Of a DNA stretch of 64,000 nt, positions 22,201 to 46,576 are shown one piece after another. Below the pieces are notes generated by a model that did not search any database, had not been told where the DNA came from, and saw only the letters and a list, made by a program, of their open reading frames with translations. Position numbers and translations under genes: made by a program. How positions within the stretch are numbered: the stretch's first letter is position 1; every line of letters begins with the position of its first letter. Origin of the DNA: Mobula birostris (taxonomy: Eukaryota); the NCBI RefSeq assembly GCF_030028105.1, contig NC_092396.1:19365820-19429819 (forward strand), given 5' to 3'.

Positions 22201-25200
22201 TTTTCTTTTCCACACCCAACTCCTCAGATAATGTAATAATTAGCAATGCTGTGCAATACGAATGAGAGGCTTGGGTTCCCATGTGTCAAATAACACGCCT
22301 GCCACCAAAGTGCCTGATAACAGACATTTCCTCCATGTGAATGCCTAAAGCTCTCCCACTGAGAGTTAACAGTATTGAATTCACCACTGACCAGAGTTCT
22401 AAATGGAACAGAACTGTGACTACAAGCGCGTTAGAAACAGGGCATTCTGTCTGTCCGTATGATTCTTCTCCTGATACCCTGAAGCCTTTCCGCCATTTAG
22501 GAGGCACAAGTCAAGAGTGTGATGGAATGCTCTGTACTTGCTTGGAAGGGGGCAGGTCCAATAATATTCAGAAAGTTTAGTATCATTCAGGACAAAGCAG
22601 AGCACTTGAATAACACCAAACTTACCAACTTAAACATTCACCCTCTCCACGATCAATAAACCTGGCTTTGATTTATATCAATAAAAAATGTGAGATTGAG
22701 TGGAATAAAGAATAATAGTGATCGAGTACAGAATGAGAAATTGAGATTGAAGGATATGACAAGATTGGGCTGAATAATATAATGGGCAAATGACATTGAA
22801 GGAGAAAGAAAATAGGTGCGACTTAGGGAAGATTAAGAAGATTGAGAGCTAAATTAAGAAAATGGACAGTATTGAAGAGTGCGACGAGTAGTCAGGTTTC
22901 GTAGATAGAGTAAAGATATGTCAAATTTCTAAGAGCTTTGACCAAACTCTTGCTCTGTAGAGAGCATTCTGATTAGTTGCAACACAGCCCGGAATGGAGT
23001 CTGCAATGTACAAGATCACAAGAGGCTGCAGAAGGTTGTCTACTCAGTAGCTTCATTCCAAGAACAGTGCTCAGTGCTCCCCAACATCAAGGAAATCCTT
23101 TCTGAGGCACAATCATTAAGGAACCTTATCATATGGAACATGCCCTCTTTTCATTACTATTGCCGTGGATAAGGTACAGGATTCTGAAGACCCACACTCA
23201 GTGATTCAGGAATAGCTTCTTTATTGCCATCATTAGATTTCTGAATGGCCCACAAACCCATGAACACTACCCCCTTGCGACACACACAAAATGCTGGAGG
23301 AACCCAGCAGGCCAGGCAGCATCTATGGAAAAAAGTGCAGTCGACGTTTTGGGCCGAGACCCTTCGGCAGGACTGGAGAAAAAAAGGCTGCCTACCTTGA
23401 TGAAGTTTAAATCTTCCTTTCGATGGGAGTTCAGTGAGCCCCTCTCTCACTGCTCCCCCTCTGTGATCCCCGCTGCTCTCTCTTTCCATAGATGCTGCCT
23501 GGCCTACTGAGTTCCTCCAGCATTTTGTGTGTGTGTGTGTGTGTGTTGCTTGGATTCCCAGCATCTGCCGATTTTCTCTTGTTTGTGATTTGAACACTAC
23601 CTCCTCATTCCTTTTTTGTAACTGTTTATTTAATTTATATTTTATAGTAATTTTAATTCTTTGCACTATGCTGCAGAAACAGAATTCACATCATATAAGA
23701 CAATGTTAACAAACTTGTTTCTGGTGTTGAAACAGATAGTGTTGGAAATTTAGGACGAGGAGTAAGAGGAGGAGATAAAATGGAGAGATATGATGTGAGG
23801 TTAAATTGAGGGATGAGGTTGAGGGAACACTGAGTGTGGATGGGATCGAGGCCTCCATTGGTCAGGTCAACCATGGATGCTGCATCCTATCTCAGTACGC
23901 AAGCCAGGGCAGTACAATAAGGAGAGCAAGCTGTTGCCCATGCAGCAGGCTACCCCTATCCCTGCAGTTGATGGTTCGAAAGGAATGGCAGAAACCAATA
24001 CAAATTGGCACCAGTGGCTTCACAGGGGTTGCAGTCATGTTGAACTCAACATTGGACTGTCTTCAGGACTCCAGCTTTGGAATTTTCCTTGCGTTTACTC
24101 GTGACGTCTTCATCACGAGTGGGTGTAGCCGCAAGGCCACGAAGGTTTGAGGCCAACGTTTTTCTCCTCATAGATGAGCTGCCAACCCCTAAGCAATTGG
24201 TTTTAAGGTGCCAGGGTCCTGCCTTTGCCCTTCTCCTGTCAGTAGAAATGTTAAGGCTAAGCCACCATTTCAAGGCCAGGAGCTGGTCTTGGGTTGTCAG
24301 AAGCTACTCAAGACACACACCAATGGGAGCATTTAATAGGCTTGTAGGAGCTTATCCCCACAATCCCCTCGCTATTCCCCTCCTCCAGACCAACTTTAAG
24401 GAACTGTGGATGGGATGGATGTGTTAAAACTAGGACAGGTTTGTTGCATTTAACAAACTTTTCATGCTTCTAACAATTTCTGAGCTCTCATACCACTATG
24501 TAAGTGAGGACCACACCTTACCTGCCATGGGAGGACACTTTGTGTTTTATCAGAGCGTGTTGTGTTACACTGGAGCAGACTATGCAAACCATAGGCGACA
24601 GCATATACAGCTGAGTATACATTGTATGAGATTCTCTTCTCCACATTGTACGATGAAGAGTTTAAGTACTTAGCCCACTGCCAATGACACTCGCTACATC
24701 CTTGATCACAAGTGCTTCTGGAGCTGACACACTCTCCCATCTCCAGGTCTGGCATGATCCATGAATTAATGTCGTTCCGAGATTTGTCTAGGAACTCCTT
24801 AAAGTGGGTCATTTTCCCTTCCTTAACTGCAATGCCTATAACAGTCCCAATAGTCTCAATATTTGGTATGTTTGCTATCTCCTCCGATAATGAAATAGAT
24901 TCACTTATGATCCATACTTTGGGAGTAAGTTTTCGAGCCACGACAATACTGAAAAACACATGTGCTATTGAGGGATTGGAAAAGAGGATAGTAACATTAA
25001 CCGTGGTACTGATATTGTTGATGGTTTGGGTGATGATCTCGGGTGAAGTGGTGATGATACCCTGATATGCAATGCAGATCCCCATTGCTGAGGCCATCTC
25101 CACCACTTTGCTGACTGCTTTGTGCCCATATTCATTATCACTACCAATGACAGCAACCCAGTTCCAGCGGAATTCCTGGATCAGCAAAGTCATGGCTTCT

Positions 25201-28200
25201 GCTTGATTCTTGTCACTTGGAATGGTCCGCAAAAATGATGGGAAACGTATTTTATCACTCAGAATCTCACCAGATGCCAGGTAACTAATCTGCAGAAGCA
25301 AAGGGGAATACCTGTATTAATGCAGCTTTTCACCACCAACGAAGCCTTCACTGTGTCAGTTTATCTTGCTCCAAGCAGAAACAGAGAAGGCACATAAATC
25401 TGTTTAATAAACAGCAACGACCACAAACACCAGAGGTTCTGCAGATGCTGGAAATCCAGAGCAACACACACACTGAGAGTGGTAATCGTAAAGGAGGGGG
25501 GTTTGCTGTGCTGGTTAAAAACAGATGGTGCAATCCTGGTCATATTACGATCGAGGAACGTGTTTGTAGCCCGGATATTGAACTTTTTGCTGTTGGACTC
25601 CGGCCATATTATTTGCCAAGGGAAATCTCACATGCAATTGTGGTTGTTGTGTACATCACTCCCTCTACCAACACGACGTTGGCGTGTAACATCATTTACA
25701 CCGTTGGGCACAGGACTACATTCAGCCAGAGACTCATTCCACCGCGATGCAGCGCTGAGCGTCATGGGAAGTCATTCCTGCCTGTGGCCATCAAACTTTA
25801 CAACTCCTCCCTTGGAGGGTCGGACACCCTGGGCCAATGGGCTGGTCCTGGACTTATTTCCGTCTGGCATAGTTTACATATTATTATTTGATTGTTTGTG
25901 GTTTTGTATCGCTATGTTTCTACTCTGTTCTTGGTAGGTGCAACTGTAACAAAACCTAATTTCCCCCGGGATCAATAAAGTATGTCTATCTATCTATCTA
26001 TCTAAAATGCTGGAGGATCTCAGCAGGTCAGGCAGCACCTATGGAAAAGAGTAAACAGTCGACATCTCAGTCCTGATGAAGGGTCTCGGCCTGAAACAAC
26101 AACTGTTCACTCTTTTCCATAGGTGCTGCCTGACCTATGGAGTTGCTCCAGCATTTTGAGTGTGTTGCTCTGGATTTCCAGCATCCACAGACTTTCTTGT
26201 GTTTGATATTTCAGAACTCAGCAGGTCAGGGAGCATCAATTTGAGAGGAGAAAACAGTCGTTGTTTCAGGTCGAGACCCTTCATCAGGACCAAATGGCTG
26301 ACCCAGGCAATCTTCTTTGGCTGCTGCTTAAGTTTTACACAATCTGGTTTACAGCAATAAGGCAACAAATGCTAAAGAGGATTGCCTAGCTCAGCCAAAG
26401 GCAGAAGCCACAATATGAGTAGAGAAGGTATGAAATTTGTAATGAGGGTTGAAGACAATATCTTCAGTTTTATGAATACTGGAAGGATTTACAAATTGTT
26501 CAAGATTGGATGTCAATAGAGTACTTTGACAGCATAGAGGAAGTGGTGAAATTGTAAGAGGTGGTACAGACTAGAAACTGAGTGTAACGTAGCAGAATGT
26601 ATTGTACAGTACATTTCAGACCTGCCAGCAGATGTCATTGCGAACATAGAACATAGAACAGTACAGTACATTACAGGCCCTTTGGCCCACAATGTTGTGC
26701 CGACCCTCAAACCCTGCTTCCCATATAACCCCCCCCCCACCTTAAATTCCTCTGAAGGGGCAGTGTGTTTCATTTCTGGCCTGAGCTGTATTTGCTGATC
26801 TTGGCCTAGGTGGTGGGCAGAGGAAAGTCAATAACGTCTTGACCTAATGTCCTCCCCTTCAAAAGGACCACAACCTTGTCATTGGGTTTGGAGGCTTGTG
26901 TGCCTTAATGACCCAGAGAGCTACGTTGGTTGGAGTCAAGGCTTTACGCTTTGGCTCTTGGTAGGGTCATCAATGTCAAAAGGTCAAAGGGTAGAGGCCA
27001 AACTATGAATGAGCCACTGGTCCTCCAGGTTTGGGGGTTCAACTCTGGGCTAACAACCCTAAATGGTAAAACAAAGCTGTTATGGAAACAGCAATGAAGA
27101 AACTCCTTTGTGATGGTATCCCTTAGTCTCCGCCAGGACTTGCGTGACTGACAGCAGGGAAAACCAAGGGGAAGCTACTGGCATGATGAAGGAATCCCTG
27201 AACACCACCAGAGATGGAGAGTCTTCGTTGTTGCCTTAAATGCCTGTCGCGTAACAGGCCGTGAATATCTAATGGTTTCCAAGAATGCTCATGGTCCTCA
27301 AATGCAGTTGCGTAAAATGCTCCAACAAATACCTAATTTCTTTAACATAACTAATGGATGCTTCTGTGACAACAAAGAGGGCTTAGACATCTTCAGGAAG
27401 GAAGGGTCTTGACCCATTGGGAAAAACTTCACCATAAATGGTTCAGAGGGCAAACTAAAGCAGGAACTTTAAATGAGGAAATGATTATACCGTTCATCTA
27501 ACCTTTATGGTAATATTGGGGCTGAGAACTTCGACTACTGCAGTTCAAATATTAACAAACATCATGCTCAAACTCACCTGAGGAATGAGGAAGAAACCTA
27601 ACACTCTAGCAATGATAATAGCTGTATCTGTCGATGGGGGTCCAATAACAGCAATCACCCTGGGCTGATAGGATGTATAATTGTTTAATAACTCCACTTC
27701 TGTTCCTTCTTTGGCCAACAGGAATCTGAACATGGCTTGGATGTCCACAACCTCAAGGCAACTGTCAGCAACATCAAAGCCCAGAGTAACGCCTGGCAAC
27801 AGTTCAGTTGAGTTATTAATTTCCTCAATGGCAAATCTCATCGCTTGGAAAAAGACAAATATCTCTGCCAAGAAAGCAGACCTAAAAGGACATGATTCAT
27901 TTCAGTTAAACTGTCATTGATAAGAAACAGAGAACTGAGAACAGACCCTTTGACCCACAATATCTGTGCCAACCATGCCAATTTAACTAATCGTATCCTA
28001 TGGTTTGGCCCCATATGCCACCTAGGCACTAAGGGTTCAGACGACGATCCTATGGTTTACACGTAGTACTGTCCAGGACTGAGCTATAGCTGGCATTATT
28101 CCATTGTCATAGTCCAATAAATTCAAGGGAATTGGCAACAAGTTGCATTTTTCAAACCAACAAATTCCACAGTGAGTTGTCCAACTACACATCATCTATA

Positions 28201-30494
28201 TATCGCCATTCCTTGACTATGTGCCCGTCTAAAAGCCTCTTAAATGTTATTACTGCACCTGCTTCCATGACCTCCCTGGCAGATGCTGGGTACCTAGTGG
28301 TCCCTGTGTAAAGAAACCTGCCTCCTAAATCTCCTTTGATCTTTCCCCCCTCTTAAAATAGGCCTCTAGTATTTGACTTCTCCAACTTGGGAGAAAGGAT
28401 CTGACTATCTACCCTATCTGTGCCCCTCGTTCTTTCATATATCTCTATTCGGTCACCACTTCAGCACCTGATACTCCAGAGAAAACAGTCCAAATTTGCC
28501 CAGTCTCTCTTTATATCTAATTGCTATCTGGTTCCTGGGAAATAATTTCCACAAGTGTCAGCCATTTGGTCAAGTACTGGGACATGAAAATTGCACGGCC
28601 CTAGTCTGTTCAACTATTGATCGTAAACAAAAATGATGTTCTTGGCTAATGTGGGCAACTGTTCTCTACCAATGTGTCTGACAAACATAGTCATGAGGGG
28701 AGAAAAACACTCAGTGTTGAAGGGTTTTGGGAACCAAAGGCCCAAAGTCACCTGCTTTTCATAAATACACAGCATTCACTACATGTCTCAAGTTATCAAG
28801 CAGACATTTTCCTGAGTTGCTAGAACAATGAATATCTCTATAAAAAATTTGACCCAGTTTTAACCTGAGATGCAAACCTCTAGCAGCTGGATAGTAATGT
28901 TACAACAGTCATTACGATTGAATGGCAAGGATCCAAGGGTATGTTCAGCTGCACAAAACAACATCATTCAGGTGGACTGCAGCTGTTGTTATCACTAATC
29001 TAAGCAAACTCAGTGTTGTGAGCCTGTTACCTGCCTGGCTAATGTTCAACTCTGAAAAAATCTGCCCGGCGATGTCGAAACATCACGAAACTCCAGACTG
29101 TGATCAGAATGTTCTGTCTCCTGCTGGGGTCTTCAGCTCTGCCATGAGAAACCGATACTAAGTTCAGGTAGAGTGAAGGAGACTCCGCAGATGTCAAACC
29201 AAAGGGTGAAATAAAGGCGCATGTGGCCTGAAGTGTCATTGCTACTAGAGTCAGCAACAGTTGGACAACTCATGGTGGAATTTGTGGGTTTGAAACGTGC
29301 AACTTGTTGCCAATTCCCATTAATTTATCAAGACTCCTGGGAGGGGGGAGAAGATGGCGGTGTGACGACAGCGTGCGGGGCCACTTCGGTGATGAATAAC
29401 TGTTATCTGTCAAGTAGGGGACTGTGCACTGTATCTGTCAAGTAGGGGACTGTGCACAATCCTGATTTGATGGAGACAGATGTGAGAGCACAGCGGAACA
29501 TCTGGAAAACTTCTGAAATGTCTGCTTTGCTACCGCTGCTACTGTGTGGTAACCAGAATCTCTGGAGCTGAAGGCCTCGAAATCCTCGGCTTTGCGTGTT
29601 TCAGCGGCTGGGGAGAGGTCGAAAGCGCTCGGCAGAGGATGGCGCTCGGGTGGCTGTATTGGAGAGGCTGTTCGGAAGCTCGGAGTTTTCGGACGGATGG
29701 ATTCAGGGTCAGCTGTGGTCGGCTGCTTCCAAGGTATCGGCAAGTTGACGGTGCCTGAAGGTTTATGGCGGGGAGTTTCTCCCTTTTGCCGCCTGCTATC
29801 GGGGACTCGGGAGTCGATCGACTCGGGGACTTTTGAGACTTTATTTACCGTGCCCATGGTTTGTCCTTCATCAAATTATGGTATTGTTTTGCACTGCTGT
29901 AACTATATGTTATAATTATGTGGTTCTGTCAGTGTTAGTCTTTGGTTTGTCCTGTTTTCTGTGATATCACTCCGGAGAAACATTGTATCATTTCTTAATA
30001 CATGTATGCATTTCTAAATGACAATAAAAGAGGACTAAGTGTTCTCATAATTTAATCTAAAAGACTATGACAATGGAATAGTCCGAGCGAAAACTCAGTC
30101 CTGGATAGTATACTACATGTAAACCGTCCAACTTTTCCAACTAGAATGCAATCATTCGTAGATCATATGTATAAAAATCTACCCACACCCCCACTTGGAT
30201 TATAACTAAGTCTCTAACTTGCTTGATTTCATTCATGACAAGGCAGTTATAGTATCTTTCCAAGGATTAGTTCCACATTAGGATATAAATTTATCCAGCT
30301 GTTACTTACTTCCCACAGCTGGGCACAACTGGCTCCGATCGATCCACATCTTTAAGTGGGAGTGTGTGAATTGGAAACAGGCCCCCAATCACATATTCTC
30401 CCGGTGCGGTTAATATCCTTGTGCATTCTTCTGGGGCGACACTGACGGGCCCCTGTGTTGTGGAGTAAACAAGCAGGGTAAGAAGGAGGTACAT
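3515..30494 (-). CDS. TAS1R1-like: Gene A: taste receptor type 1 (class C GPCR), T1R1/T1R2-type; six exons 30494-30310, 27881-27578, 25289-24522, 17370-17158, 14283-14163, 4446-3515; 2523 nt = 840 aa + stop
   Basis: All five introns are GT-AG with TAS1R phases 2,0,0,0,1 and the joined frame is open. Motifs: GEYVIGGLFPIH, AMRFAIEEINNS, ISYLAS..LSDKIRFPSFLRTIPSD, nine-Cys domain, 7TM with DLPKNYNEAK and C-tail PKCYIIL..FQSCIQDYT (T1R1/T1R2-like). The exact orthologue needs a phylogeny. Confidence 0.93.
4630..5030. repeat. Degenerate minisatellite, period about 65 bp
   Basis: Recurrent units resembling agcatggg-ttagatacag-taaagctccctctacact; about 6 decayed copies. Confidence 0.5.
5028..5306 (+). 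mobile_element. 3' end of a Rex1/Babar- or L2-type LINE
   Basis: Encodes STFSQRLIPPRCNTERHRKSFLPVAIKLYNS; AATAAA followed by a (TATGAC)n tail; matches 25706-26003. Confidence 0.7.
6770..7195. mobile_element. Penelope-like fragments with hammerhead-type motifs, including an inverted-repeat hairpin at 7040-7190
   Basis: CTGATGA/CTGAAGA-stem-(G/A)AAA motifs at 6855-6894(+), 7048-7091(-) and 7143-7186(+). Confidence 0.55.
7266..7292. repeat. (TG)n microsatellite at the end of a Penelope-like fragment
   Basis: Direct reading of the sequence. Confidence 0.9.
9434..12366 (-). mobile_element. Gypsy/Ty3 LTR retrotransposon, internally deleted, two LTRs of about 240 bp (9434-9673, 12120-12366)
   Basis: Similar LTRs; TSD GCAGC at 9429-9433 and 12367-12371; purine tract next to the 3' LTR; decayed RT, RNase H (LACDASPCGIGAV) and integrase (PWQRIDVDFA, DNGPQF) in Gypsy order. 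Confidence 0.88.
12566..13197 (+). mobile_element. Penelope-like element 3' fragment (GIY-YIG C-terminus plus terminal repeat)
   Basis: DLPVAAH...LRLEEIHLVFHLRSLQPDGMNIDF; flanking duplication TTCCCTAAAGGA at 12554-12565 and 13198-13209. Confidence 0.75.
14163..14283 (-). CDS. TAS1R1-like: Gene A exon 5 (cysteine-rich domain; absent from the ORF track)
   Basis: Acceptor ccaacag|GTC; VPFSNCSANCELGQKKVPRGVFPCCFSCEDCPSGTYLNQS; phase-1 donor G|GTAAGT; 121 nt, the same size as gene B exon 5. Confidence 0.93.
14605..14830 (-). mobile_element. Penelope-like terminal repeat fragment
   Basis: Shares the gcaggccaggcagcatct...cagtcgacgtttt.gg.cgagacccttc..caggact block with other copies. Confidence 0.7.
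15327..15520 (+). mobile_element. tRNA-derived SINE
   Basis: A-box-like TAGTGTAGTAG and B-box GGTTCGAATCT; core ttccatc.gtgct.ggttgag.gtcg shared with 18296-18612. Confidence 0.7.
15547..15855 (+). mobile_element. V-SINE (HE1-like)
   Basis: tRNA-like head plus V-domain ttctccccatgactgtgtgggtttcttccgggtgctccagtttcctccca. Confidence 0.7.
16053..16149. repeat. Degenerate 10-bp tandem repeat (CTAAATGTAT)n
   Basis: About 9 imperfect units. Confidence 0.6.
17158..17370 (-). CDS. TAS1R1-like: Gene A exon 4
   Basis: Acceptor tgtctgtcag|TTG; LLSRLKTVKF...YFDENGDPPTGYDIVSW...IHW; donor TTG|GTGAGA; 213 nt. Confidence 0.92.
18030..18098. repeat. 36-bp tandem duplication
   Basis: tttgcaggtggtacctatcatagccagagagaa at 18030 and 18066. 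Confidence 0.9.
18296..18612 (-). mobile_element. Young tRNA-derived SINE with a 15-bp TSD
   Basis: B-box GGTTCGAGACT, (CGCA)n plus A-rich tail, TSD CTCCAATGTCTTTCT at 18281-18295 and 18613-18627. Confidence 0.85.
21673..21925 (-). mobile_element. V-SINE (HE1-like)
   Basis: Reverse-strand V-domain (gtgggaggaaaccagagcacccggaggaaacccatgtgg on plus) and B-box. Confidence 0.75.
22950..23720 (+). mobile_element. L2/Rex-type LINE 3' remnant interrupted by an inverted Penelope-like pair (23279-23590)
   Basis: RYRILKTHTQ*FRNSF-like remnant; duplicated TGAACACTACC at 23261 and 23591. Confidence 0.6.
24522..25289 (-). CDS. TAS1R1-like: Gene A exon 3
   Basis: Acceptor cttctgcag|ATT; ISYLAS...FRWNWVAVIGSDNEYG...VYSAVYAVAYGLHSLLQC...LPWQ; donor CAG|GTAAGG; 768 nt. 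Confidence 0.94.
25474..26003 (+). mobile_element. Internally deleted Rex1/Babar-type LINE inserted in a Penelope-like fragment (25425-26290)
   Basis: Endonuclease piece KGGGFAVLVKNRWC...RPYYLPRE...VVYI joined to the RT C-terminus KSFLPVAIKLYN and a (TATC)n tail. Confidence 0.7.
26850..27262 (+). mobile_element. Probable RTE-derived non-autonomous element
   Basis: RTE-like 5' leader (ctggtcctccaggtttgggggtt...gggctaacaaccct) and RTE-like 3' end (RWRVFVVALNA); recognised from memory only. Confidence 0.4.
27578..27881 (-). CDS. TAS1R1-like: Gene A exon 2
   Basis: Acceptor tccttttag|G; FQAMRFAIEEINNSTELLPGVTLGF...VIGPPSTD...FLIPQ; donor CAG|GTGAGT; 304 nt. Confidence 0.93.
28054..30125. mobile_element. 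Putative DNA-transposon relic bounded by about 60-bp imperfect inverted repeats (28054-28114 and 30063-30125)
   Basis: ggtttacacgtagtactgtccaggactgag...tattccattgtcatagtc versus its reverse complement; contains nested retroelements. Confidence 0.55.
29341..30060 (+). mobile_element. About 0.7-kb non-autonomous retroelement
   Basis: 5' GGAGAAGATGGCGG, 3' AATAAA and aatctaa tail; homologous to 2746-3369 and 58726-59410. Confidence 0.75.
30310..30494 (-). CDS. TAS1R1-like: Gene A exon 1 (signal peptide, start of Venus flytrap domain)
   Basis: ATG at 30494; MYLLLTLLVY...APGEYVIGGLFPIH...VPSCG; phase-2 donor AA|GTAAGT. Confidence 0.9.
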
Positions 30495-30613
30495 TTTTTT
30501 CTGCAGGGAATACGAGAGAGAGAAAGTGCTCTCCACACATGGAGGAAGCTGATGCTTGCCATTTCCACTTTTAAAGAATACTGCACGATGGGTGGCGAGA
30601 GAGACAGACGATT

Positions 30614-30621
30614 GTTTGCAT
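30614..30621 (-). promoter_or_regulatory. Octamer-like ATGCAAAC upstream of gene A
   Basis: 7/8 match in sense orientation, 120 bp upstream of the ATG at 30494; a second near-match GTGCAAAT lies at 30761-30768. Confidence 0.35.
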
Positions 30622-30811
30622 GGATTTGCCTAGCACTCGCTGTTTGCTTAAGTTGGGTGCAATGCAGATGCATTCCCGCCTCATCATTAACATCCCCATC
30701 ACCGACCTTTAGCTGGCCCCATGCATACTCAGGATTGCTGTATTCATGCGGAGTGTTCAGGTGCAAATTAAAATCACGCCCCCACCAGGCATCCCACTCC
30801 ACCGACCTCCC

Positions 30812-31112
30812 ATAAGACCATAACACATAGGAGCAGAATTAAGCCATTTTGGCCCATCGAGTCTGCTCCGCCATTTCATCATGGCTGATCCTTTTCCCTC
30901 CCAACCCCATTTTCCTGCCTCCTCCCTGTAACATTTCATGTCCTGACTGTTCAAGAACCTATCAATCTCCCCCTTAAATATACCCAATGACCTGGCCTCC
31001 ACAGCCACCTGTGGCAATGAACTCCACAGATTTACCACCCTCTGGCTAAGTAAATTCTTCCTCATCTCCGTCCTAAATAATCATCCTTCTATTCTGATGC
31101 TGTGCCCCTGGT
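30812..31112 (-). mobile_element. CR1 LINE 3' fragment
   Basis: SQRVVNLWSSLPQ..VEA and the CR1 tail ataagaccataa on plus. Confidence 0.8.
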
Positions 31113-33454
31113 CATGAGTATTACAGAAATTTTATTTAAAATATAGTATTAATAAAGGAATGAGGAGGGTCTGGGCACAAAGGTACATTTAAAAGTGTTT
31201 TGTACATCCCTTTCTCCTGTAAGTTACAGGCTTGAGTGATGGACGGACCAATGAGGACAAAGAATTCCCTGGAACAGTTGATTCAACCCATAGCCTTCTA
31301 ACTTGTCTACCGAAACCAGACTCAATTAATTTAGCTTCCAGTACCTAAAGCACCAAGGATGGCTGGCCACCTCATTTCTCTTTTCTTGGCCACTACAATC
31401 CCAGCTAAAGTCATGAAGTGGTGATATATTGGGAATGACAGAGGTCTATAGGAGAAATGACATTGTGCCAAAAGCCACAGATGTTCCATAGTTACAATCA
31501 AATCTAATCTTCCCCTCACCTCACACCCACCACCTGGTAGTCAAAACAATGAGCAGGCGGCCTGATTGCTTAAAATCCACCCAACTCAATTTCTGAATCC
31601 TACCGAAAATCAACAAGACTACACAGGTCTGCTCATACAACACATACCTGATACATTCTGCCGTGAGATGCTTTGGAATTCTGCACAGAAGACGGCTTTT
31701 TCCAACATTCCAAGCAGATGACCCCTCCAATCTGGAGCAAATCCTTCTAGTAGAAGGCTAAAAGGAGAAGCCAAACTGGACTGTAAAGCACGTAGATGAT
31801 ACAAATCATCATGTTAAACTGCAGAAAGTCAACCAGTCAGACTGAAAACTACTGCCAATGGATCCTATTAAGTACGGGACAATTAACAAGACAGACCATC
31901 CTCCACCGGTTTCTAAGTCGAAGCACATTGTTCCCCAGAAAGTCAAAGTTCAAAGTATATTTATTATCGAGGTATGTACATTATATGCAACCTTGAGATT
32001 TGTCTCCTTACAGGCAGCCACAAAACAAAGAAACCCAATAGAACTCATTTTAAAAAATGTCAAATACCCAAAACATACCAAATCGTGTAAACAATAAAAG
32101 TAAGCTAATAATGTTCAGAACAGAAGCTCACAAAAGTGAGTCCGCAGCCATGAAGCCAGTCATCACTGCAGCCGATGCAGGAGCCCACTTGTTGCAGGCC
32201 GCAGCCTCAGCTCAGCCCAGAGACGAGCAAACCTGACAGAGCAGCGACCCCCTCACCTCCGGCCCCAACACCCTGACCTCGATCTGGCTCGGCACTTGAG
32301 TCAGCCAACCCTCGGGTCGTTCCTCACTCTTGGACCTGGGCCGTGTTGCTTTGATAGTCTCTTGGGTTCAGGCCCCACCACCTTGATGCTGTCCCTCCTC
32401 AGTTCTGCCGCGTCGAATTGGCTCTAGGTCTGCTCCAGCAATAGCCAAAGATCGACTCCCTTTCCATTGCTAAAACGGCAACATTAGCAGCTAGCTGTAA
32501 TAATAGATTATCTTCTCCATTTCCAGAATATGCCTGCAGTCATAGATTAAGTGTGAAGGTCTTTTTAACATATCCCAGGGCACACTTAGACCCACAATTT
32601 TGAGTCCCCTTTGCTCGTTCTATATCAGGATTATGTTACCATTCTATCTTCTGAAGCAACAAACCCACGGCTGATGTGAAACCACTGTACTCATTCAGCT
32701 GTTAACCCAAGAACTGAACTAATGCACTTCAGCTCAGGCCAATGTTAAAAGCGACTATGCTTTGCCTTCGACATCCCCCTCCCCTTCAAATGTCCGAGCT
32801 GACAAGAATGGGTATGGTATAGATTTAGCAAAATGATAGTTAGGTATGCTGAGTAACACACACACACACACACAAATGTTGGAGAAGCACAGCAATCCTG
32901 ATGAAGGGTCTCACCTGAAACGCTGACTGTTAATTCCCCTCCTTAGATGCTGCCTGACCTGCGGAGTTCCCCTGGCGTTTTTTTGTGTGTTAATTTGGAT
33001 TTCCAGCATTTGCAGACTTGCTTGTGTATATGGCTAAATATGTTTTTCTGATACTTCCGTAGTTTCATGGCAATCACGACAAGTAGTAAACACCTTCACA
33101 AAAACTAAACTTACATTTTTTTTTAAATGTACCCACCAAGTGGATTTTAAATTCATGTCTCTAGGCTTATAGATTCTACTCCTGTACCTTAAATAGTCTA
33201 TCTCCAAAGCCCTCAATTAGACCAGATCATCATTCTAAAGAAGACATTTGCAGGACAATAATAAAAGCCATGAGCAGGCCAAATTGTCAATAAGCATGAA
33301 CGTATCTTTGGACAGGTACCAGACGTGTAGTCCTCCTGATAACCCATTGTCTTTGACCTGTGAATCAGCAGTGAATGAGTGAAACCAACCAAAGCTTGAA
33401 CGTCAGCCTCTGATAAGAGTTTGTAGCCATGATGGACTGAATAGTTGTTGGGAA

Positions 33455-36400
33455 ATGTATGATAAAGCATTTTGGTAAAAGGAACAATAGTGCAGACTAT
33501 TATCTAAATGGGGAGAAAATTCAAACATCAGAGGTGCAGAGGGACTTAGGAGTCCTTGTGCAAGACTCCCAGAAGGTTAATTCACAGGTTGAGTCTGTGG
33601 TAGAGAAGGCAAAAGCAATGCTGGCGTTTATTTCAAAGGGAATAGAATTTAAAAGCAAAGAGATAATGCTGAGGTTTTGTAAGACACTAGTCAGGCTGCA
33701 CTTGGAGTATTGTCAACAGTTTGGGGCCCCGTATCTCAGAAAGGATGTGCTGTCATTGGAGAGAGTCCAGAGAAGGTTCATGAGGATGATTCGGGGAATG
33801 AAGGGGTTAACACGTGAGGAGCATTTGGCAGCTTTAGGAATTTAGAAGAATGCAGGGGGGGGATCTCATTGAAACCTACTGAATTTTGAAAGGACTAGAT
33901 AAGGTGGATGCGGAGAGAATGTTTCCTATGGTGGGAGTATCCAGAACCAGAGGAAACGGCCTCAAAATTGAAGGGTGGCGTTTTAGAATGGGGGTGAAGA
34001 GGAATTTTTTTTTTAGCCAGAGTAGTGAATCTGTGGAATGCTGTGCTGCAGACTGCGGTGGAGGCCAAGTCCGTGGGTATATTTAAAGCTGAAGTTAATA
34101 GTTTCCTGATTGGTCAGGGCATCAAGGGATATGGTGAGAAGGCAGGTTTTAATTCTCGGCCCAAAACGTCGACTGTACCTCTTCCTAGAGATGCTGCCTG
34201 GCCTGCTGCGTTCACCAGCAACTTTGATGTGTGTTGCTTGAATTTCCAGCATCTGCAGAATTCCTCGTGTTCATGAACAAAGCAAATGAGTTTAATGCAA
34301 GAAGCATCATGAATGAAGCAGATAAGCTGAGAGCATGGATCAGTACTTAGAGATATGATGCTGTGGCCATTATAGAGACTTGGGTGGTGCAGGGGCAGGA
34401 ATGGTTACTCAGAGTGCCAGACTTTAGATGTTTCAGAAAGGACAGGGAGGGAGGCAAAAGAGGTGGGGGCATGGCACTGCTGATCAGAGATAGTGTCATG
34501 GCTGCAGAAAAGGAGGAACTTATGGAGGGATTGTCTACTGAGTCTCTATGGGTGGAAGTTAGGAACAGGAAGTGGTTAACAACTCTACTGGGTGTTTTTT
34601 ATAGACCATCCAATAGTAACAGGGACATCAAGGAACAGATAGGGAGACAGATTCTGGAAGGGTGTAATGATAACAGGGTTGTCGTGCTGGGAGATTTTAA
34701 TTTCCCGAATATTGATTGGCATGTTCCTAGACCAAGGGGTTTAGATAGGGTGGAGTTTATTAGGTGTGTTCAGGAAGGTTTCTTGACACAATATATAGAT
34801 AAGCCTACAAGAGGAGAGGCTGTACTTGACCTGGTATTGGGAAGTGAACCTGGTCAGGTGTCAGGTCTCTTCTCAGTGGGAGAGCATTTTAGAGATAGTG
34901 ATCACAACTCTATCTCCTTTGCCATAGCACTGGAGAGGGTTAGGAACAGACAAGTTAGGAAAGCATTTAATTGAAGTAAGGGGAAATATGAAGCCATCAG
35001 GCAGGAAATTGGAAATATAAATTGGGAACAGATGTTCTCAGGGAAATGTAAGGCAGAAATGTGGCAAATATTCAGGGGATATTTGAGTGGCGTTCTGCAT
35101 AGGTACGTTCCAACAAAACAGGGAAAGGATGGTAGGTATAGGAACCGTGGTGTACAAAGGCTGTTGAAAATCTAGTCAAGAAAAAAAGAAAAGCTTACAA
35201 AAGGTTCAAAAAACTAGGTAATGATAGAGATCTAGAAGATTATAAGGTTAGCAGGAAGGAGCTTAAGAATTAAATTAGGAGAGCCAGAAGGGGCCATGAG
35301 AAGGCCTTAGTGAACAGGATTAAGGAAAACCCCGAGGCATTCTACAAGTATATGAAGAGCAAGAGGATAAGACGTAAGAGTATAGGACCAATCGTGTGAC
35401 AGTGGAAAAGTGTGTATGGAACTGGAGGAAATAGCAGAGGTGCTTACTGAATACTTTGCTTCAGTGTTCACTACAGAAAAAGATCTTAGCGATTGTAGGG
35501 ATGACTTACAGAGGACTGAAAAGCTTGAGCATATAGACATTAAGAAAGAGAATGTGCTGGACCTTTTGGAAAGCATCAAGTTGAATAAGTCTCCAGGACC
35601 GGATGAGATGTATCCCAGGCTACTGTGGGAGGCGAGAGAGGAGATTGTTGAGCCTCTGGCATTGATCTTTGCATCATCAATGAGGATGGGAGAGGTTCCG
35701 GAGGGTTGGAGGGTTGCCGATGTTGTTCCCTTATTCAAGAAAGGGAGTAGAGATAGCCCAGGAAATTATAGACCAGTGAGTCTTACTTCAGTGGTTGGTT
35801 AGTTGATGGAAAAGATCCTGAGAGGCAGGATTTATGAACATTTGGAGAGGCATAATATGATTAGAACATAGAACATAGAACAGTACAGCACAGTACAGGC
35901 CCTTTGGCCCACAATGTTGTGCCGACCCTTAAACCGTGCCTCCCATATAACCCCCCACCTTAAATTCCTCCATATACCTGTCCAGTAGTCTCTTAATTAG
36001 GATTAGTCAGCGTGGCTTTGTCAAAGGCAGGTTGTGCCTTACGAGCCTGATTGAATTTTTTGAGGACATGACTGAACACATTGATGAAGTTAGAGCTGTA
36101 GATGTAGTGTATATGGATTTCAACAAGGTATTTGATAAAGTACCCCATGCAAGGCTTATTGAGAAAGTAAGGAGGCATGGGATCCAAGGGGACCTTGCTT
36201 TGTGTATCCAGAATTGGCTTGCCCACAGAAGGCAAAGTGTGGTTGTAGACGGGTCATATTCTGCATGGAGGTCGGTGACCAATGGTGTGCCTCAGGGATC
36301 TGTTCTGGGACCCCTACTTCTATAAATGACCTGGATGAGGAAGGGGAGGTAAATTTGCTGATGACACAAAGGTTGGGGGTGTTGTGGATAGTGAGGAGGG

Positions 36401-37368
36401 CTGTCAAGAGGTTACAGTGGGACATTGATAGGATGCAAAACTGGGCTGAGAAGTGGGAGATGGAGTTCAACCCAGATAAGTGTGAGGTGCTTCATTTTGG
36501 TAGGTCAAATATGATGGCAGAATATAGTATTAATGGTAAGACTCTTGACAGTGTGGAGCATCAGAGGGATCTTGGGGTCCGAGTCCATAGGACACTCAAA
36601 GCTGCTGCGGAGGTTGGCTCCATGGTTAAGATGGCATATGGAGCATTGGCCCTCATCAATTGTGGGATTGAGTTTAGGAGCCGAGAGGTAATATTGCAGC
36701 TATATATGACCCTGGTCAGACCCCACTTAGAGTACTGTGCTCATTTCTGGTCACCTCACTACAGGAAGGATGTGGAAACTATAGAAAGGGTGCAAAGGAG
36801 ATTTACAAGGACGTTGCCTGGATTGGGGAGCACACCTTATGAGAATAGGTTGAGTGAATCCGGCCTTTTCTCCTTGAAGCATCGGAGGATGAGGGGTGAC
36901 CTGATAGAGGTGTATAAGATGATGAGAGGCATTGATTGTGTGGATAGTCAGAGGCTTTTTCCCAAGGCTAAAATGGCTAACATGAGAGGGCACAGTTTTA
37001 AAGTGCTTGGAAGTAGGTACAGAGATGTCGGGGGTAAGTTTTTTATGCAGAGGGTTGTGAATGCGTGGAATAGGCTGCCGGCAACAGTGGTGGAGGCAGA
37101 TACGATAGGGTTTTTTAAGAGACTCCTGGATAGGTACATGGAGCTTAGAAAAATAGAGGGCTATGGGTAACCCTAGGTAATTTCTAAAGAAAGTGCATGT
37201 TTGGCACAGCATTGTGGGCCGAAGGGCCTGTTTTGTGCTGTAGGTTTTCTATGTTTCGATGATTCTATGTCTCTGGGATTGAGTGGGATCTGGGATCAGG
37301 CATGATGAAATGGCGGAGCAGACTCGATGGGCTGAATGGCCTAATTCAGCTCTTGTGTCTTATGGTCT
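33455..37368 (+). mobile_element. Nested CR1 LINEs between the two genes: 3' fragment (33455-34147 plus 37275-37368) interrupted by a Penelope fragment and a second CR1 ORF2 (about 34275-37260)
   Basis: Endonuclease (ETW, GGG, YRP, GDFN, LDLV, SDH), RT (PGPD, NYRPVSLT, YMDFNKVFD, GVPQGSVLGP, VRPHLEYC); multiple stops and frameshifts. Confidence 0.88.
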
Positions 37369-38035
37369 CCTCAAGGTTCTATGATTTCTGTTCATGCACT
37401 ATGTTTGTCCTGTACCTGCCATCTTTTACTATTTTTTGCTTCCATTCCCGGTTCCTCAGTGTGTCCATCACATGCCTATGAGTTATCATCAAGAAGTCCT
37501 CAGACCTAACTCACTAACTCTCTGAGGTGATTGGAGTCAATGTAAGATAGCCTATTTTTTGACAAAGTTAAGGTAGCATTTCAATGGCAAGAAGCTGGTC
37601 TTCAAGCTTTGCTTTGCTTTCACTCATTTGCTCCTGATTCACAGGTCCACGTTAATGGGTCTACATGTCTGGTGCTTGTCCAAGGATACATTTATGCTTA
37701 CTGAAGGGTTGATTTTTAACCTGTTTATCAAACATATATTTGCCTGACTCATTGAGGGAAACTTTCAAATCTCACTTTAGGAAAATGATAAGATGGACAA
37801 GTAGATAAAATGGATTTGGTGATTAGGTTGAGGGATTAAATGTTAAGGTGATAGTTGGGATCTGCGGGTTTAATCTTTGCCAAAGGGACCATTTTGACTG
37901 TTTGCTCCTATATTTGTATCAAGCACAAGACTTTGAAACTAGGTTCATACAAAACACTGACCTTGAATTACTTTTAACCAGAAATATCATCCCATGGCTA
38001 GCTCACTTTCAAATGTCATTCAGCATGTGTAAGAA

Positions 38036-38043
38036 ATGCAAAT
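38036..38043 (+). promoter_or_regulatory. Perfect octamer ATGCAAAT (POU-factor site) upstream of gene B
   Basis: Exact motif 108-135 bp upstream of the candidate ATGs, in sequence I do not recognise as repeat. Confidence 0.6.
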
Positions 38044-38150
38044 ATCCTCAAATAAGCTAACCTAGTTATTTGATTACAAAGAAAACAGATTAAAATGTTC
38101 ACAAATAAATCAGTAGAGTTTTTAGTTGCACAACAGTAAAAATCCTGTTA

Positions 38151-38374
38151 ATGCAGAGACAATTATTGTGGATTGAAATGATGAGCTACATTGTGCAATT
38201 GGTTTTCTATTTATCGCTGGGCATGGCTTCTGTAACTGAAGCAACAGGACTTCGGGGAATCAATGCACAGTACATGCAGCCCGGAGACTACATCATTGGA
38301 GCTCTGTTCCCTTTCCATGAGTTCGGTACTGGTCTAGCTCATCGATTGAAGCCTGAGAGGGTGACTTGTGACAG
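38151..38374 (+). CDS. TAS1R3-like: Gene B exon 1 (alternative ATG at 38178/38181)
   Basis: Hydrophobic signal peptide, PGDYIIGALFPFH, VTCD; phase-2 donor AG|GTAAGG. Confidence 0.88.
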
Positions 38375-38929
38375 GTAAGGGATTGGAACCTTTAAATTCT
38401 CTGAAGATGCTGATACCCGCTGAGGTGAAGGTCCGTATGTACTCTGAAGGTGCTTTCCAGGAACAGTCCTCCTCACTGTTCTAACCATGCCCAAAGCTAT
38501 TGTTTCCCTGGTCTTGCTGACACTCAAAGTGGCTAGACATGTGTGATTTCTTTTCCTTTCAAACACTCCTCCTATTCCCTTTCCAAATCCAATTTGAATC
38601 TACCTCCACTACTGCCCCCGTGGCTTTGCATTCTGGTCCCTAACCACTCACTACATTAAAAATGGGCTTCTTTTTATATCAGATTTGGTTTCTTTAACAA
38701 CCCCATTTGTTCTCTGATTGGTATCATGGTGTAATGGTTATGTTTCTGGACTAGCAGCCAGAGGTCTGGACCTTTCATCCAGAAGAATTGATCCCAACAT
38801 GGCACCCAAGACATTTAAATTAAAATTATTTAATAAATCTGGAATTTCTTAAAAGCCAATCTTGGTTACAGTAACCATGAAAGTAACGGATTCTCCTATA
38901 AACCAATTAGGTTTACTAATGCAACACTG

Positions 38930-39400
38930 ACAAAATGCTGGAGGACCTCTGCAAGTCAGGCAGCATCTATGGAGGGGAATTAACAATCAACAGTTTGGGC
39001 CAAGACCCTTCATTGGGACTGGAAAGGAAGGGGGCAGAATAAAAGGTGGAGGGAGAGGAACGATTACGAGCTGGCAGATAATAGGTGAGATCAGATGAGG
39101 GGGAAGGTGGGTGAGTGGGGGACAAAGTAAGAAGCTGGGAAGTGATAGGTGGAAGAGGGAAAGGGTTGAAGAAGGTGGCAGCTAATAGGAGGGGAGAATG
39201 GATCGTGAAAGAAGGATTGGAGATCAGGAGGCAGAGGGAGGTGATGGGCAGGTGAGGAGAAGAGGAGGGCTGAGATGGGGAAACCAGAAAGGGGAGTGGA
39301 AAGAAAGAGAGAAAAGTTTTTAAAAAATCAATGTTCATGCTATCAGCTTGGAGGATACACAAATGAAATATGGAGTGTCGCACCTCCAACTTGAGTATGG
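38930..39400 (-). mobile_element. Penelope-like 3' fragment in gene B intron 1
   Basis: HSIFHLCILQADSMNIDF remnant plus terminal repeat. Confidence 0.7.
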
Positions 39401-39916
39401 CATTTACTCATACCTGTCCTTACCTGGCCTGGCCTACATGTGGCTCCAGACCTATCAATGAGGTTGACGCCTAGCGACTTGCTCAATTCAGGGATGGATA
39501 AGGATGTGGGATAAATACTGGCATTGGCTGCGATGTCCACATCCCGTGAATAAATAAAAGTCGTCTAGTCCTTGATCTTCCTGTCACGACCTGCAGATGA
39601 AATGCAGAACGCCATCAAATATTCAGAAGCAGCAAGTCAACAAAACCCAACAATTTTAATCAATAATCACTATTAGTTGCCCCATCAATGTCCCTGTGGA
39701 GACCCATGAAGCATAACTGTTGAGTGAGGTCACCTCACTCAACAGGAGAGCTGGCTCAGGAGCTACTCCTTCCACCTGGCCAAGTGGCTACCATGCTGTG
39801 TGAATCATAATTCTAATGGATCCTTTCAATTCTGTTTTGCTTCCCCCTCCTTCCCACTGCCAAGGTTTTCGGGGCTGTTACCCACATAGCACTAATCTTT
39901 GTTTTCTCTGTTTAAG

Positions 39917-40217
39917 CTTTTACCCACATGGTTACGGAATGTTTCTGGCAATGACATTTGCGATCGACGAAATAAATAACTCCACCTCACTTTTGCCGGG
40001 AATACGCCTGGGTTATGAAGTCCACGACGATTGTTTTGAGACTTTGGCCTCCATCCTGCCGAGCCTCCTCTTCTTGTCTAACAGCAAGGGGAATGGGGTT
40101 GACGTGCTCTGCAACTACTCAGAGTACAGGAGCCAGGTGGTTGCCCTGCTGGGACCATGGACATCGGAACAGGCAATTACCATAGCCAAATTGTTCGGGT
40201 TGTTTTTGTTTCCACAG
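39917..40217 (+). CDS. TAS1R3-like: Gene B exon 2
   Basis: Acceptor tctctgtttaag|C; FYPHGYGMFLAMTFAIDEINNSTSLLPGIRLGY...LFPQ; donor CAG|GTAAGT; 301 nt. Confidence 0.92.
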
Positions 40218-41380
40218 GTAAGTCCTTCGTGGTTTTCTATTTGCCACAGTTGGAGCCAAAACAAGCAGCGGTGAACTGGCACTCAATTTTATATTCTGCT
40301 GGAATCTGTGGAAAAGGAAGCAGGCCCTGTCTAAAATCTGCTGCCGAACTATGATCACAGGTCTTGCACTGTCACCAAGCTGAATTTCTATCACTCAGTT
40401 CCTCGCTAATGAGCTCGGTCCCAGGAATTTGCGTCAATTTCTGTTCAGGCAATTGATTTCAACCGGCAGTCAAGCTTCAGTTAGCTTCAGCTTACAAGAA
40501 TGATCACATGATCCCCACCCACACACGCAGGGTGGAGGGCAGGGAAGTCAGCCGGGTTTTCAACCCCCGATCTCTGCCAAATGCCCTGTCCTGACTGAAA
40601 GCCGGTATGATCTAATGACAGGGAAATTGGCAGCAACATCTTTGGCTTCAGTCAATAAAAGTTCTGAATGGAAGTGTGGACTCTCAGGGCATACACAGGA
40701 TCTATGATAACAGTGGTCGCCAGGAAGTCTTCAGTTTTCCCCAAGGATCCAGGGACAGACACATTGTGCAAGGTTTGCTCAGTGCCCACACAATGACATT
40801 TGAACAGAGAGCAGAGGTAGTCAAGAGGAAAAGGGTTTGCCCCTCATGCCTCAGTTCCATTATGAATAAATCTCAGAAATCACAGAGCAAAATCACAAAC
40901 TTAAATTTAACCATTCTAGTTTCCTTATATTCTGAGGAACTAAATGTTCCTTGGGAACAAGGGCTAGGAAGTCGCTCCCTAGTACCTCATACCAAGCTTC
41001 ACAGATGCATGAATTACTGGAGAAAGTATGCAGCCACATTGGTTTAGGCGTCAGCAGTCTGTAGAGAACCGTACAAGTAGATAGTCAAGTATCAGACCAA
41101 TTAGTCACTAAACTATGCTTTGTTCTTCCACGTTGAAAGTTCAGATATTGGGCCAAGCCTGAAAGTACAAAGTAAACAAAAAAACAAAATTAAAACTGAG
41201 GAAGTTGTAAATTCTCCAGATTACAAACGGAGGCCAATAAGGAATGATACAACAATCTTGACTTCGAAAGCAGAGACAGGACAACTGTGCAAAATGGTGT
41301 ATTTATTGGAAACGGGAGATTGGCATTTGGGTAAGATTTAATGTGTGAAGATACAATTATGGATTCTCTTCCTTTCTTAG

Positions 41381-42177
41381 ATTAGTTATGGAGCCTCCAG
41401 TGCCAAACTAAGCAACAAGAAGATCTTTCCGTCATTCCTGAGGGTAATGCCAAGTGACAATAACCAAGCAATAGCCATTGTTTCTATTATCAAGAAGTTC
41501 AAATGGAACTGGATTGCTGGCATTGGGAGTGATGATGAATATGGGCGACAGGGGATAGAACTGGTCCAGAGGTATGCTTCACTCCAAGGTATCTGTGTAG
41601 GTTACATTGAGATAATCCCCATCCATCTCAGCCTGCCCAGTACCAAGCAAAAAATCTCAGAGATCGTCAACCATATCAGCCAAGTGAACGTTAACATTAT
41701 CATCCTCTTCTCCAGTGAAGGACCTGTTCAGGAACTGCTGAAAGAGGTGATTCAGAGAAATATCACCAGGAAGGTCTGGATTGCAAGTGAAGCTTGGGTT
41801 AAATCGGATATTGTTATTCACATACCAGGTATTGAGCGCATTGGCACAGTGATTGGTACAGTGGCAGCATGCCAGGTTTTGAGGATTACATTCTAAACCA
41901 TCTCACCAACATCAGGAATTCAAAGGGACAGCGATGTGATGCAGAGTACTGTGGTAACCATACCTTTCCTTTTTGGCCGTACCCTACCTCACAGCAGCTC
42001 CTCAGCGGCGTTCAACACCTGTCACCTGAAAACCTGTCCGTTGTGTTGGACCAGCCGGTAAGACGGGACACATTCAGTGTGTACATGGCTGTGTATAGTA
42101 TTGCACACGCACTACATACCCTACTAAAGTGCCACACTGGGAGATGTGAAACCGCAGCAGCATGGTACAACTGGCAG
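41381..42177 (+). CDS. TAS1R3-like: Gene B exon 3 (frameshifted)
   Basis: Acceptor cctttcttag|ATT. ISYGASSAKLSNKKIFPSFLRVMPSD...IGTVIG reads in one frame and MPGFEDY...VYMAVYSIAHALHTLLKC...NWQ in another. Donor CAG|GTATGA. Confidence 0.9.
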
Positions 42178-42318
42178 GTATGAAAAAGTTTCAATGTTTA
42201 TGCCCAGAGTCAAAAGTTGCATGCAGAGCTAATTTATGTTTCTGGATTGTGCACCATCTGACCATAAGCTCCAACTACTAGATTCCTGTGACCAGGTCTA
42301 TGATCTTAGGAGTTATTA

Positions 42319-42605
42319 AGGGGCGGCATGGTAGTGCACTAGTTAGCACAACGCTTTGTGTTACATGCGACCCGGGTTCAATTCCCGCTGCTGCCTGCCA
42401 GGAGTTTGTACATTCTCCCCGTGACCACGTGGGTTTGCTCCGGTGCTCTGGCTAAATCCTACAGACCAAAGACGTACCATTAATTGGTCATTGTAAATTG
42501 TCCTATGATTAGATTGGGATTAAACTGGGGGGGGGGGGTTGCTGGGCAGCATGGCTCAAAGGGGCAGAAGGGTCGATTCCACACTGTATCTCAATAAATA
42601 AAAAA
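42319..42605 (+). mobile_element. V-SINE (HE1-like)
   Basis: A box, B box GGTTCAATTCC, V-domain, aataaataaaaaa tail. Confidence 0.75.
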
Positions 42606-42840
42606 TCAGTGGTGATCATCCCTTTGATCTTCTTCTGTGGTGGAAATAATTAATCTCTGGCACCAGACTGCCATGTCCCTCTTGAGCTCTAGATAAGTGA
42701 CAAACGTTGTCTGATTCTGTGCACTGAACTTAGTCCTGGGCTCAGTGGAAAAGAGTTGAAGATGTCCATGATGCATGAGAGCTCGTAGGGAGAGATGGCT
42801 GACTCCATCAGAGCAGGACAGCTGGTGAGGTGGACACTTA

Positions 42841-43160
42841 AGCCTGATTTATACTTCTGAGTCAACGTGTCGCCGCAAACCCTACGCAAAGCTGACGTGG
42901 AACCCTACGCGAGAGCCTGCGTTGCTGCAAAGCGCACCTCTCCCAAAATGTAACCGCGCATCACAGCAACGCAGAACGCAACTGCTGTGATTGGTCCGCT
43001 TGGTAGCATCGCCTTCCCTCCTACGCTGCAATAGCTTCCCATTGAGCAACTGAAGGGCAGGGAAGGAACTCTGGCTGCAATGCTTTCCATAAAGCTTTAC
43101 AGACCTCCGAGATTATGGAGGACACATTTTGCTTTTATGAAAAAAGACGCTTGCGTCCCG
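42841..43160. mobile_element. Probable one-ended PIF/Harbinger-like MITE fragment
   Basis: TTA|AGCCTGATTTATACTTCTG terminus and CpG-rich body; second TIR not found. Confidence 0.35.
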
Positions 43161-46455: not shown

Positions 46456-46576
46456 GTACCTCTGTCCCACTGTTCCAAGAGCTGTGGCCTGGGCCAAAAG
46501 AAACTTATCATCAGTCTTTACTCCTGCTGCTTTGAATGTGAAGATTGCCCAAGTGGAACCTTCCAGAACTCAACTG
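46456..46576 (+). CDS. TAS1R3-like: Gene B exon 5 (cysteine-rich domain)
   Basis: Acceptor cattcacag|GTA; VPLSHCSKSCGLGQKK..SCCFECEDCPSGTFQNST; donor G|GTGAGC; 121 nt. Confidence 0.92.

Follow-up and report, generated by a model that had tools for sequence, protein, structure and literature searches.

We analyzed a 64,000-nucleotide (nt) stretch of the Mobula birostris genome (NC_092396.1, positions 19,365,820 to 19,429,819 of the forward strand; hereafter, the window), which holds two divergently transcribed genes for T1R taste-receptor subunits, here called gene A and gene B and identified below as TAS1R6-1 and TAS1R3C. The window is very probably the left two-thirds of the ancestral cartilaginous-fish TAS1R cluster, with a 10-nt deletion that ends TAS1R3C and, judging from sequence, this ray has probably lost the T1R6.1-T1R3C receptor. 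A first-pass annotation had described the gene pair as a self-contained heterodimer locus, possibly of ancestral arrangement and under shared regulation. As the cluster and the pairing of the two subunits are already in print, that headline is largely known or unproven, and it is the recent loss of TAS1R3C that may be new.

Gene A and gene B are two complete six-exon T1R genes on opposite strands, and all ten introns (five in each gene) are of the GT-AG type. The divergent layout was annotated correctly, with the minus-strand ATG of gene A at 30494 and the plus-strand ATG of gene B at 38178 lying 7,683 base pairs (bp) apart. Gene A extends over 840 residues, from its ATG to a stop at 3515, with zero internal stops. 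Its last exon is 100% identical to a public Mobula birostris protein, and the named gene A model (P0011) matched all three of the Pfam models ANF_receptor, NCD3G and 7tm_3. Gene B was found as a single copy in a genome search. The two genes and the lesion in gene B are as follows.

3515..30494, minus strand: gene A, TAS1R6-1 by gene model, tree and published label; intact, 840 amino acids (aa)
30494-30310, 27881-27578, 25289-24522, 17370-17158, 14283-14163 and 4446-3515, minus strand: exons of gene A (gene model)
38178..48816, plus strand: gene B, TAS1R3C by gene model, tree and published label; frameshifted in exon 3
38178-38374, 39917-40217, 41381-42177, 44322-44525, 46456-46576 and 47888-48816, plus strand: exons of gene B (gene model)
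41857..41862, plus strand: site of the 10-nt deletion in exon 3 of gene B, with a copy of a 5-nt direct repeat on either side (run contigs, orthologues)
41894..41896, plus strand: premature stop of gene B at codon 338, in the shifted frame (gene model)

The first-pass annotation missed that gene B has an out-of-frame exon 3, with a length of 797 nt. The frame is therefore shifted and a stop is reached at codon 338, before either the cysteine-rich domain or any of the seven transmembrane helices. A functional TAS1R3C needs an uninterrupted frame through the membrane domain, which gene B lacks, and the working heterodimer proposed for this genome is thus not supported. The proteins of gene B orthologues, moreover, carry residues corresponding to the lost 10 nt. 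We compared exon 3 with contigs (rather than raw reads) from four of the 24 listed sequencing runs. Run X4 yielded one contig of 2,979 nt, at a depth of 23.5, that shows zero differences from the window, the deletion included, while all three of the other runs (X5, X9 and X10), which represent three other organisms, contain 10 extra bases after 41857. Run X5 presents its own, separate stop codon, created by a CGA-to-TGA change at 41546, and the P0001 model of Mobula hypostoma leaves out 29 residues at this stop codon and ends in another frame. The loss of TAS1R3C in devil rays is apparently recent and repeated. For gene B itself, a recent loss is argued for by its very short terminal branch (0.0045) in the tree described below. 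In the listed exonic rows of the exon 3 comparison (two rows being omitted), X5 differs by two synonymous and five other changes and X9 by 16 and 13, numbers that are too low to test selection.

The 10-nt deletion may have arisen recently through slippage between the 5-nt repeats. The TAS1R3C transcript would then be degraded, or would yield a fragment devoid of the membrane domain, leaving a ray without the T1R6.1-T1R3C receptor and with T1R4-based pairs only. One could instead consider the frameshift to be an assembly error or the private allele of one animal, with the species keeping a working T1R6.1-T1R3C receptor. Such a case would fit the sampling of only one individual, the clean remainder of gene B and the intact gene A. 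We nonetheless consider it very improbable, as an independently assembled run contig has the identical deletion with no alternative path listed, as a relative bears a different null lesion and as a clean 10-nt loss between 5-nt repeats would be unlike a homopolymer-type error. The match with X4 thus disfavors a slip in the assembly, although it does not demonstrate fixation of the deletion in the species.

Several points weigh against the reading of a cluster in which a receptor was recently lost and need to be considered. X4 may come from the source sample of the assembly, for which a single run was compared, and contigs drop rare variants. The remainder of gene B looks sound, with a short end branch and with all splice sites canonical. 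Gene A is intact, with no excess of changes at conserved columns (16/306, vs 15 and 16 in two stingray models), which is not what one would expect of a long-orphaned subunit. In addition, a two-copy inverted element in the spacer between the genes could be regulatory. Finally, the elephant fish T1R3C is reported in PMC10781636 to be silent with any of the three T1R6 subunits, so that the function of the pair is not universal.

We retain the reading of an old cluster with a recently ended TAS1R3C, while noting that the product of gene A may now pair with T1R4 instead. Relaxed selection on gene A was rejected, given the conserved-column counts. Counts of 'private' changes in gene A relative to the stingrays are not comparable, as the two stingrays are closely related to each other. 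At residue 409 of gene A (exon 3, 24555-24557 region), a serine stands in place of the cysteine that five outgroup orthologues and the two stingrays invariably have.

The subunit types that the first-pass annotation had assigned (T1R1/2 for gene A, T1R3/4 for gene B) agree with comparisons to solved structures. The sawshark orthologue of gene A is nearest to T1R2 chains (609 bits, vs 505 bits for T1R3), while that of gene B is nearest to T1R3 (570 bits, vs 417 bits for T1R2). Best scores against solved structures do not discriminate between T1R3C and T1R4 (570 and 587 bits on T1R3), and this assignment was decided by the tree and the published labels. The tree was based on 56 hand-chosen proteins and 840 columns (IQ-TREE quick search, LG+G4, with support from the Shimodaira-Hasegawa-like approximate likelihood ratio test (SH-aLRT), without bootstrap). 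Gene A is found on the T1R1/2 side, in a cartilaginous-fish clade of six rows that includes elephant fish and shark T1R6-1 (SH-aLRT 100). Gene B belongs to a cartilaginous-fish clade whose sister group comprises the T1R3 proteins of bird, marsupial, frog, caecilian, coelacanth and cichlid (SH-aLRT 100), being placed as sister to T1R3A plus T1R3B and separate from T1R4 (SH-aLRT 99 and 100). The first residues of the elephant fish orthologues of gene A (P0019) and gene B (P0008) match the Callorhinchus sequences labeled T1R6-1 and "T1R3", respectively, in Supplementary Data 1 of PMC10781636. Taken together, the clades and the labeled elephant fish sequences identify gene A as TAS1R6-1 and gene B as TAS1R3C.

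The guess that these two subunits pair was a good one, as the same two genes were shown to respond together. According to the preprint 10.64898/2026.08.28.746343, T1R6.1 and T1R3C of the red stingray and of the white shark are functional together and give clear responses to sucrose, proline and alanine. Neither synteny nor the manta is mentioned in the main text of this preprint.

To consider how general the loss is, we aligned ten models of gene B orthologues to that of the sawshark; these are automatic models and as such offer weak evidence. No internal gap of at least 5 residues is seen in the models of red stingray, smooth-hound, catshark, white shark and basking shark (P0373). The models of M. 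hypostoma, zebra shark and one skate lack internal stretches of 21-123 residues; two insertions are present in the model of Hypanus and small deletions in that of elephant fish. Devil rays and the whale shark are filter feeders, whereas the zebra shark, the skate and the bamboo shark are not known to be. The loss of TAS1R3C could thus be a convergent outcome of filter feeding in devil rays and the whale shark, an explanation that we consider unlikely. The two separate lesions in close relatives are in line with this explanation, as is the labeling of the whale shark T1R3 (TAS1R3C) as a pseudogene in PMC10781636. Against it stand the gap-free model of the basking shark, the large gaps in the zebra shark and skate models (although such gaps are weak signs) and the bamboo shark, for which PMC10781636 lists no T1R3 and labels T1R6-1 a pseudogene. 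Given the records of the zebra shark and the bamboo shark, the loss seen in the whale shark could be one that carpet sharks share more widely. The basking shark model and the carpet shark pattern weaken the case for filter feeding as the sole or a sufficient cause.

The locus is not self-contained, as had been claimed, since an intact TAS1R4 follows 30 kb after gene B and TAS1R6-2 is found on another contig. TAS1R4, the third T1R gene of the region, lies beyond the window; the first-pass annotation missed it, and it emerged when the genome was searched with the final exon of gene B as the query.

C32:19444971-19453561 (L012-L013), plus strand: TAS1R4, six exons, 839 aa, zero stops; 30 kb past gene B and 15 kb past the right end of the window
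C35:2992968-3011632 (L042-L044), plus strand: TAS1R6-2, six exons, stop-free in the matched stretches; resembles the sequence labeled T1R6-2 in whale shark

In the tree, TAS1R4 falls together with proteins of gecko, caecilian and newt, and the first residues of its elephant fish orthologue match a sequence labeled T1R4 in PMC10781636. We also considered that gene B itself might be TAS1R4, given the octamer found before it (see below), and rejected this idea, as the third gene has both Oct-like sites and clusters with the labeled T1R4. Like gene A and gene B, TAS1R4 has six exons. A Dishevelled C-terminal domain (Dsh_C) is encoded on the minus strand 6 kb after TAS1R4, and an ERRFI1/Mig-6 exon lies 29 kb to the left of the window. 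The gene order is hence ERRFI1, TAS1R6-1 (minus), TAS1R3C (plus), TAS1R4 (plus) and DVL (minus), and the three TAS1R genes, which span at most 85 kb, lie side by side next to DVL, as in the ancestral cluster. PMC10781636 describes a TAS1R cluster next to DVL1 and MXRA8 in elephant fish, coelacanth, lungfish, axolotl and anole, an arrangement that it proposes to be the ancestral one of jawed vertebrates. In each of two species, elephant fish and red stingray, the orthologues of the three genes sit on a single scaffold under consecutive RefSeq numbers; this suggests the same order of gene A, gene B and TAS1R4 in these species, although such numbers do not show strand. The adjacency of gene A and gene B is thus old. 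TAS1R6-3 was absent from the top matches of the genome search. In elephant fish, T1R6-2 and T1R4 are reported to form an amino-acid receptor (PMC10781636). As TAS1R6-2 is on C35, the genes for this pair are unlinked in the present genome.

Other observations in this region concern older and more recent changes. Between gene B and TAS1R4, a decayed fragment of a TAS1R3C last exon is found at C32:19439521-19439715, plus strand (L011). It is 65% identical to the M. hypostoma model, contains one stop, is followed about 150 nt later by an exact octamer and is a trace of an older duplication. A retrotransposon with long open frames of 495 and 239 aa and a further frame of 231 aa, which may be gag-like, are also found between the two genes, at 59852-61827 (plus strand) and 63010-63705 (minus strand). 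The public TAS1R4 models of two Mobula species start at stray exons in the window (62067-62294 and 62278-62349) and not at the ATG used here. In M. hypostoma, the TAS1R4 model (P0132) runs out of frame for part of exon 3 and has a gap of 35 residues in its membrane domain. Neither the listed gene A matches nor the P0011 cluster includes a TAS1R6-1 protein of M. hypostoma, and the whole TAS1R cluster may be decaying in this species.

The proposal of an ancestral arrangement stands in part. The adjacency of the genes is in agreement with the elephant fish and red stingray accessions, whereas the head-to-head orientation as the ancestral state of jawed vertebrates is not supported by the one outgroup considered, the axolotl. 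Strands outside this genome were considered for the nine axolotl genes only. Among the nine TAS1R genes given for this species in PMC10781636, a single pair is divergent, namely TAS1R3A1 (labeled a pseudogene there) and TAS1R4; both belong to the T1R3/4 class, and genes of opposite classes do not form a divergent pair. In Supplementary Table S2 of that paper, axolotl TAS1R4 and TAS1R7 have identical exon 1 coordinates, reflecting either an error in the table or a first exon common to both genes. The stray exons of automatically built models, when used as a clue to strand in relatives, gave one weak and uninformative match. The words head-to-head, bidirectional and orientation are absent from the text of PMC10781636, whose Fig. 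3a and Extended Data Fig. 7 show gene direction. Our literature search, which left most subscription papers outside its scope, revealed no earlier statement on the orientation of the pair or on the present loss, although figures and preprint supplements may hold either, and no paper combining Mobula with a taste receptor.

As annotated, more than half of the spacer between the two ATGs is transposon. BLASTN against 310 kb of other DNA of the same genome yielded 61% repeats, and whole-genome searches added a copy on C12 with 84% identity and a short repeat end, giving about 72% repeats and leaving about 2 kb. Of the four spacer open reading frames tested, two match Pfam endonuclease or reverse-transcriptase models and two match nothing. 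The unique flanks named in the first-pass annotation, at 30495-30809 and 37370-38177, were likewise confirmed. The spacer contains the following features.

30495..30809, minus strand: single-copy region upstream of gene A (BLASTN, genome search)
30501-30525, minus strand: pyrimidine tract and AG before the ATG of gene A, splice-acceptor-like, ending 6 nt short of the ATG
30614..30621, minus strand: Oct-like site that differs from the octamer at one position, 127 nt upstream of the gene A ATG (motif scan)
30810..31116, no strand: repeat fragment with at most 19 matches in the 310-kb sample (BLASTN)
31117..31888, no strand: low-copy stretch of 772 nt, with one 84% copy at C12:1491432-1492210 (genome search)
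31939..32376, no strand: repeat (BLASTN, genome search)
32890..33034, no strand: short high-copy repeat with at most 45 matches in the sample (BLASTN)
33102..33411, minus strand: left arm of an inverted duplication present in two copies, with its core at 33287-33411 (genome search, alignment)
33450..37369, plus strand: 3.9-kb block of decayed non-long-terminal-repeat retrotransposon pieces and short repeats (BLASTN, Pfam)
34351-34971 and 35951-36322, within the 3.9-kb block: Exo_endo_phos and RVT_1, respectively (Pfam)
37370..38177, plus strand: upstream region of gene B, single-copy except for the inverted arm; G+C 37%, CpG observed/expected 0.11
37590..37857, plus strand: right arm of the inverted duplication (genome search, alignment)
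38036..38043, plus strand: exact octamer (Oct/POU), 142 nt upstream of the gene B ATG (motif scan)

The acceptor-like stretch before gene A, together with the Hypanus and Hemitrygon gene A models, which reach upstream of this ATG, points to a possible extra, untranslated 5' exon of gene A. The cores of the inverted arms are 75% identical (score 136, vs a best score of 46 in 100 shuffles), and the inner ends of the arms would lie about 260 nt apart if the repeat block were removed. A genome search, which skips very common words, revealed no third copy. The inverted element could have been left behind by a local inversion, derive from the end of an old transposon or have a regulatory role.

The expected shared or bidirectional regulation is not supported by the spacer, of which only about 2 kb is free of repeats, in which the 3.9-kb block separates the two proximal regions and whose repeat share is within the local range (61%, as compared with 64% in the last intron of gene A and 21-41% in three other nearby non-coding stretches). 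The observed/expected CpG ratio is 0.49 before gene A, 0.11 before gene B and 0.29 overall, which is not the character of a CpG island. When the 600-nt upstream regions of gene A, gene B and TAS1R4 were searched for shared proximal promoter sequence, nine of ten pairwise alignments scored at or below the level of shuffled sequences, with the tenth corresponding to the inverted arm. The proximal regions do, however, contain octamers. Besides the exact site before gene B, TAS1R4 has an exact octamer at -114 and a variant at -177. As exact octamers number 21 in 264 kb, with about 0.016 expected per 200 nt, two proximal exact octamers are unlikely by chance; the variant site before gene A is weaker than the exact ones. 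An Oct-like motif before TAS1R4 was described in PMC10781636, where Pou2f3 was suggested, and the octamer before TAS1R3C extends this proposed Oct/Pou2f3 control past TAS1R4.

Given that the partner of T1R4 is unlinked here and that the human TAS1R genes are 5-12 megabases apart (PMC10781636), linkage is not needed for subunits to function together. Parallel Oct sites would allow co-expression of the subunits with or without linkage, as must hold for mammals. Co-expression would be achieved most simply through a separate proximal Oct (possibly Pou2f3) site for each gene and not through one bidirectional promoter, and the head-to-head layout would be the leftover of a local duplication and inversion. 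Alternatively, where both genes are intact, the head-to-head arrangement of TAS1R6-1 and TAS1R3C could be kept because a spacer element, for which the inverted element is a candidate, co-activates both genes in one cell. This would be in line with the adjacent genes being true partners in stingray and white shark, with their adjacency to TAS1R4 in elephant fish and red stingray, with a possible joint loss in the bamboo shark records of PMC10781636 and with the inverted element having one arm facing each gene. We consider such co-activation quite improbable, however, in view of the intron-like repeat share of the spacer, the block that separates the arms, the lack of a CpG island, the proximal regions that cannot be aligned beyond shuffles, the unlinked partners here and in human and the different divergent pair (T1R3A1/T1R4) in axolotl.

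In its most far-reaching form, which we regard as highly improbable, the pair would have been a co-regulated divergent unit since the chimaera-elasmobranch split, with a formerly palindromic element and an Oct site for each gene, encoding the oldest known sugar-responsive vertebrate taste receptor and switched off repeatedly in devil rays by separate mutations after retrotransposons had split the element. Returning to the recent end of TAS1R3C within an old cluster, this would offer a manta-type ray without a subunit of the one shark and ray receptor shown to be sucrose-responsive, together with a second null change in a close relative, which may be new. Such a natural knockout can serve to address the role of T1R6.1-T1R3C in sharks and rays, a switch of T1R6-1 to T1R4 and diet as a driver of T1R losses.

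When compared with known systems, the pair shares with bidirectional-promoter pairs the divergent orientation of two functionally linked genes. In such head-to-head pairs, start sites lie less than 1 kb apart, often with a CpG island, whereas the ATGs here are far more widely spaced, about 2 kb remains without repeats and the spacer is CpG-poor, although these distances are measured between ATGs and not between start sites. The cluster of Nishihara et al. (PMC10781636) is similar in its side-by-side TAS1R genes and DVL neighbor, in the six exons, in the Oct-like motifs before TAS1R4 and in its repertoire of TAS1R3C, TAS1R4 and TAS1R6, yet that study, in its text, considered four cartilaginous fishes and no ray and reported no octamer before TAS1R3C. 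The T1R6.1-T1R3C receptor described for red stingray and white shark in the preprint consists of the same two genes by name and tree, with the red stingray gene A orthologue sharing a 90% cluster with the protein of the present ray; the difference is that TAS1R3C is frameshifted here. As in the whale shark, with its TAS1R3C pseudogene (PMC10781636), and in the T1R losses described for carnivorous and marine mammals (PMC10869828), a T1R3-type subunit is lost while other T1Rs are kept. Unlike those losses, the present one is a separate, recent event in a ray lineage, in which the partner, TAS1R6-1, is still intact.

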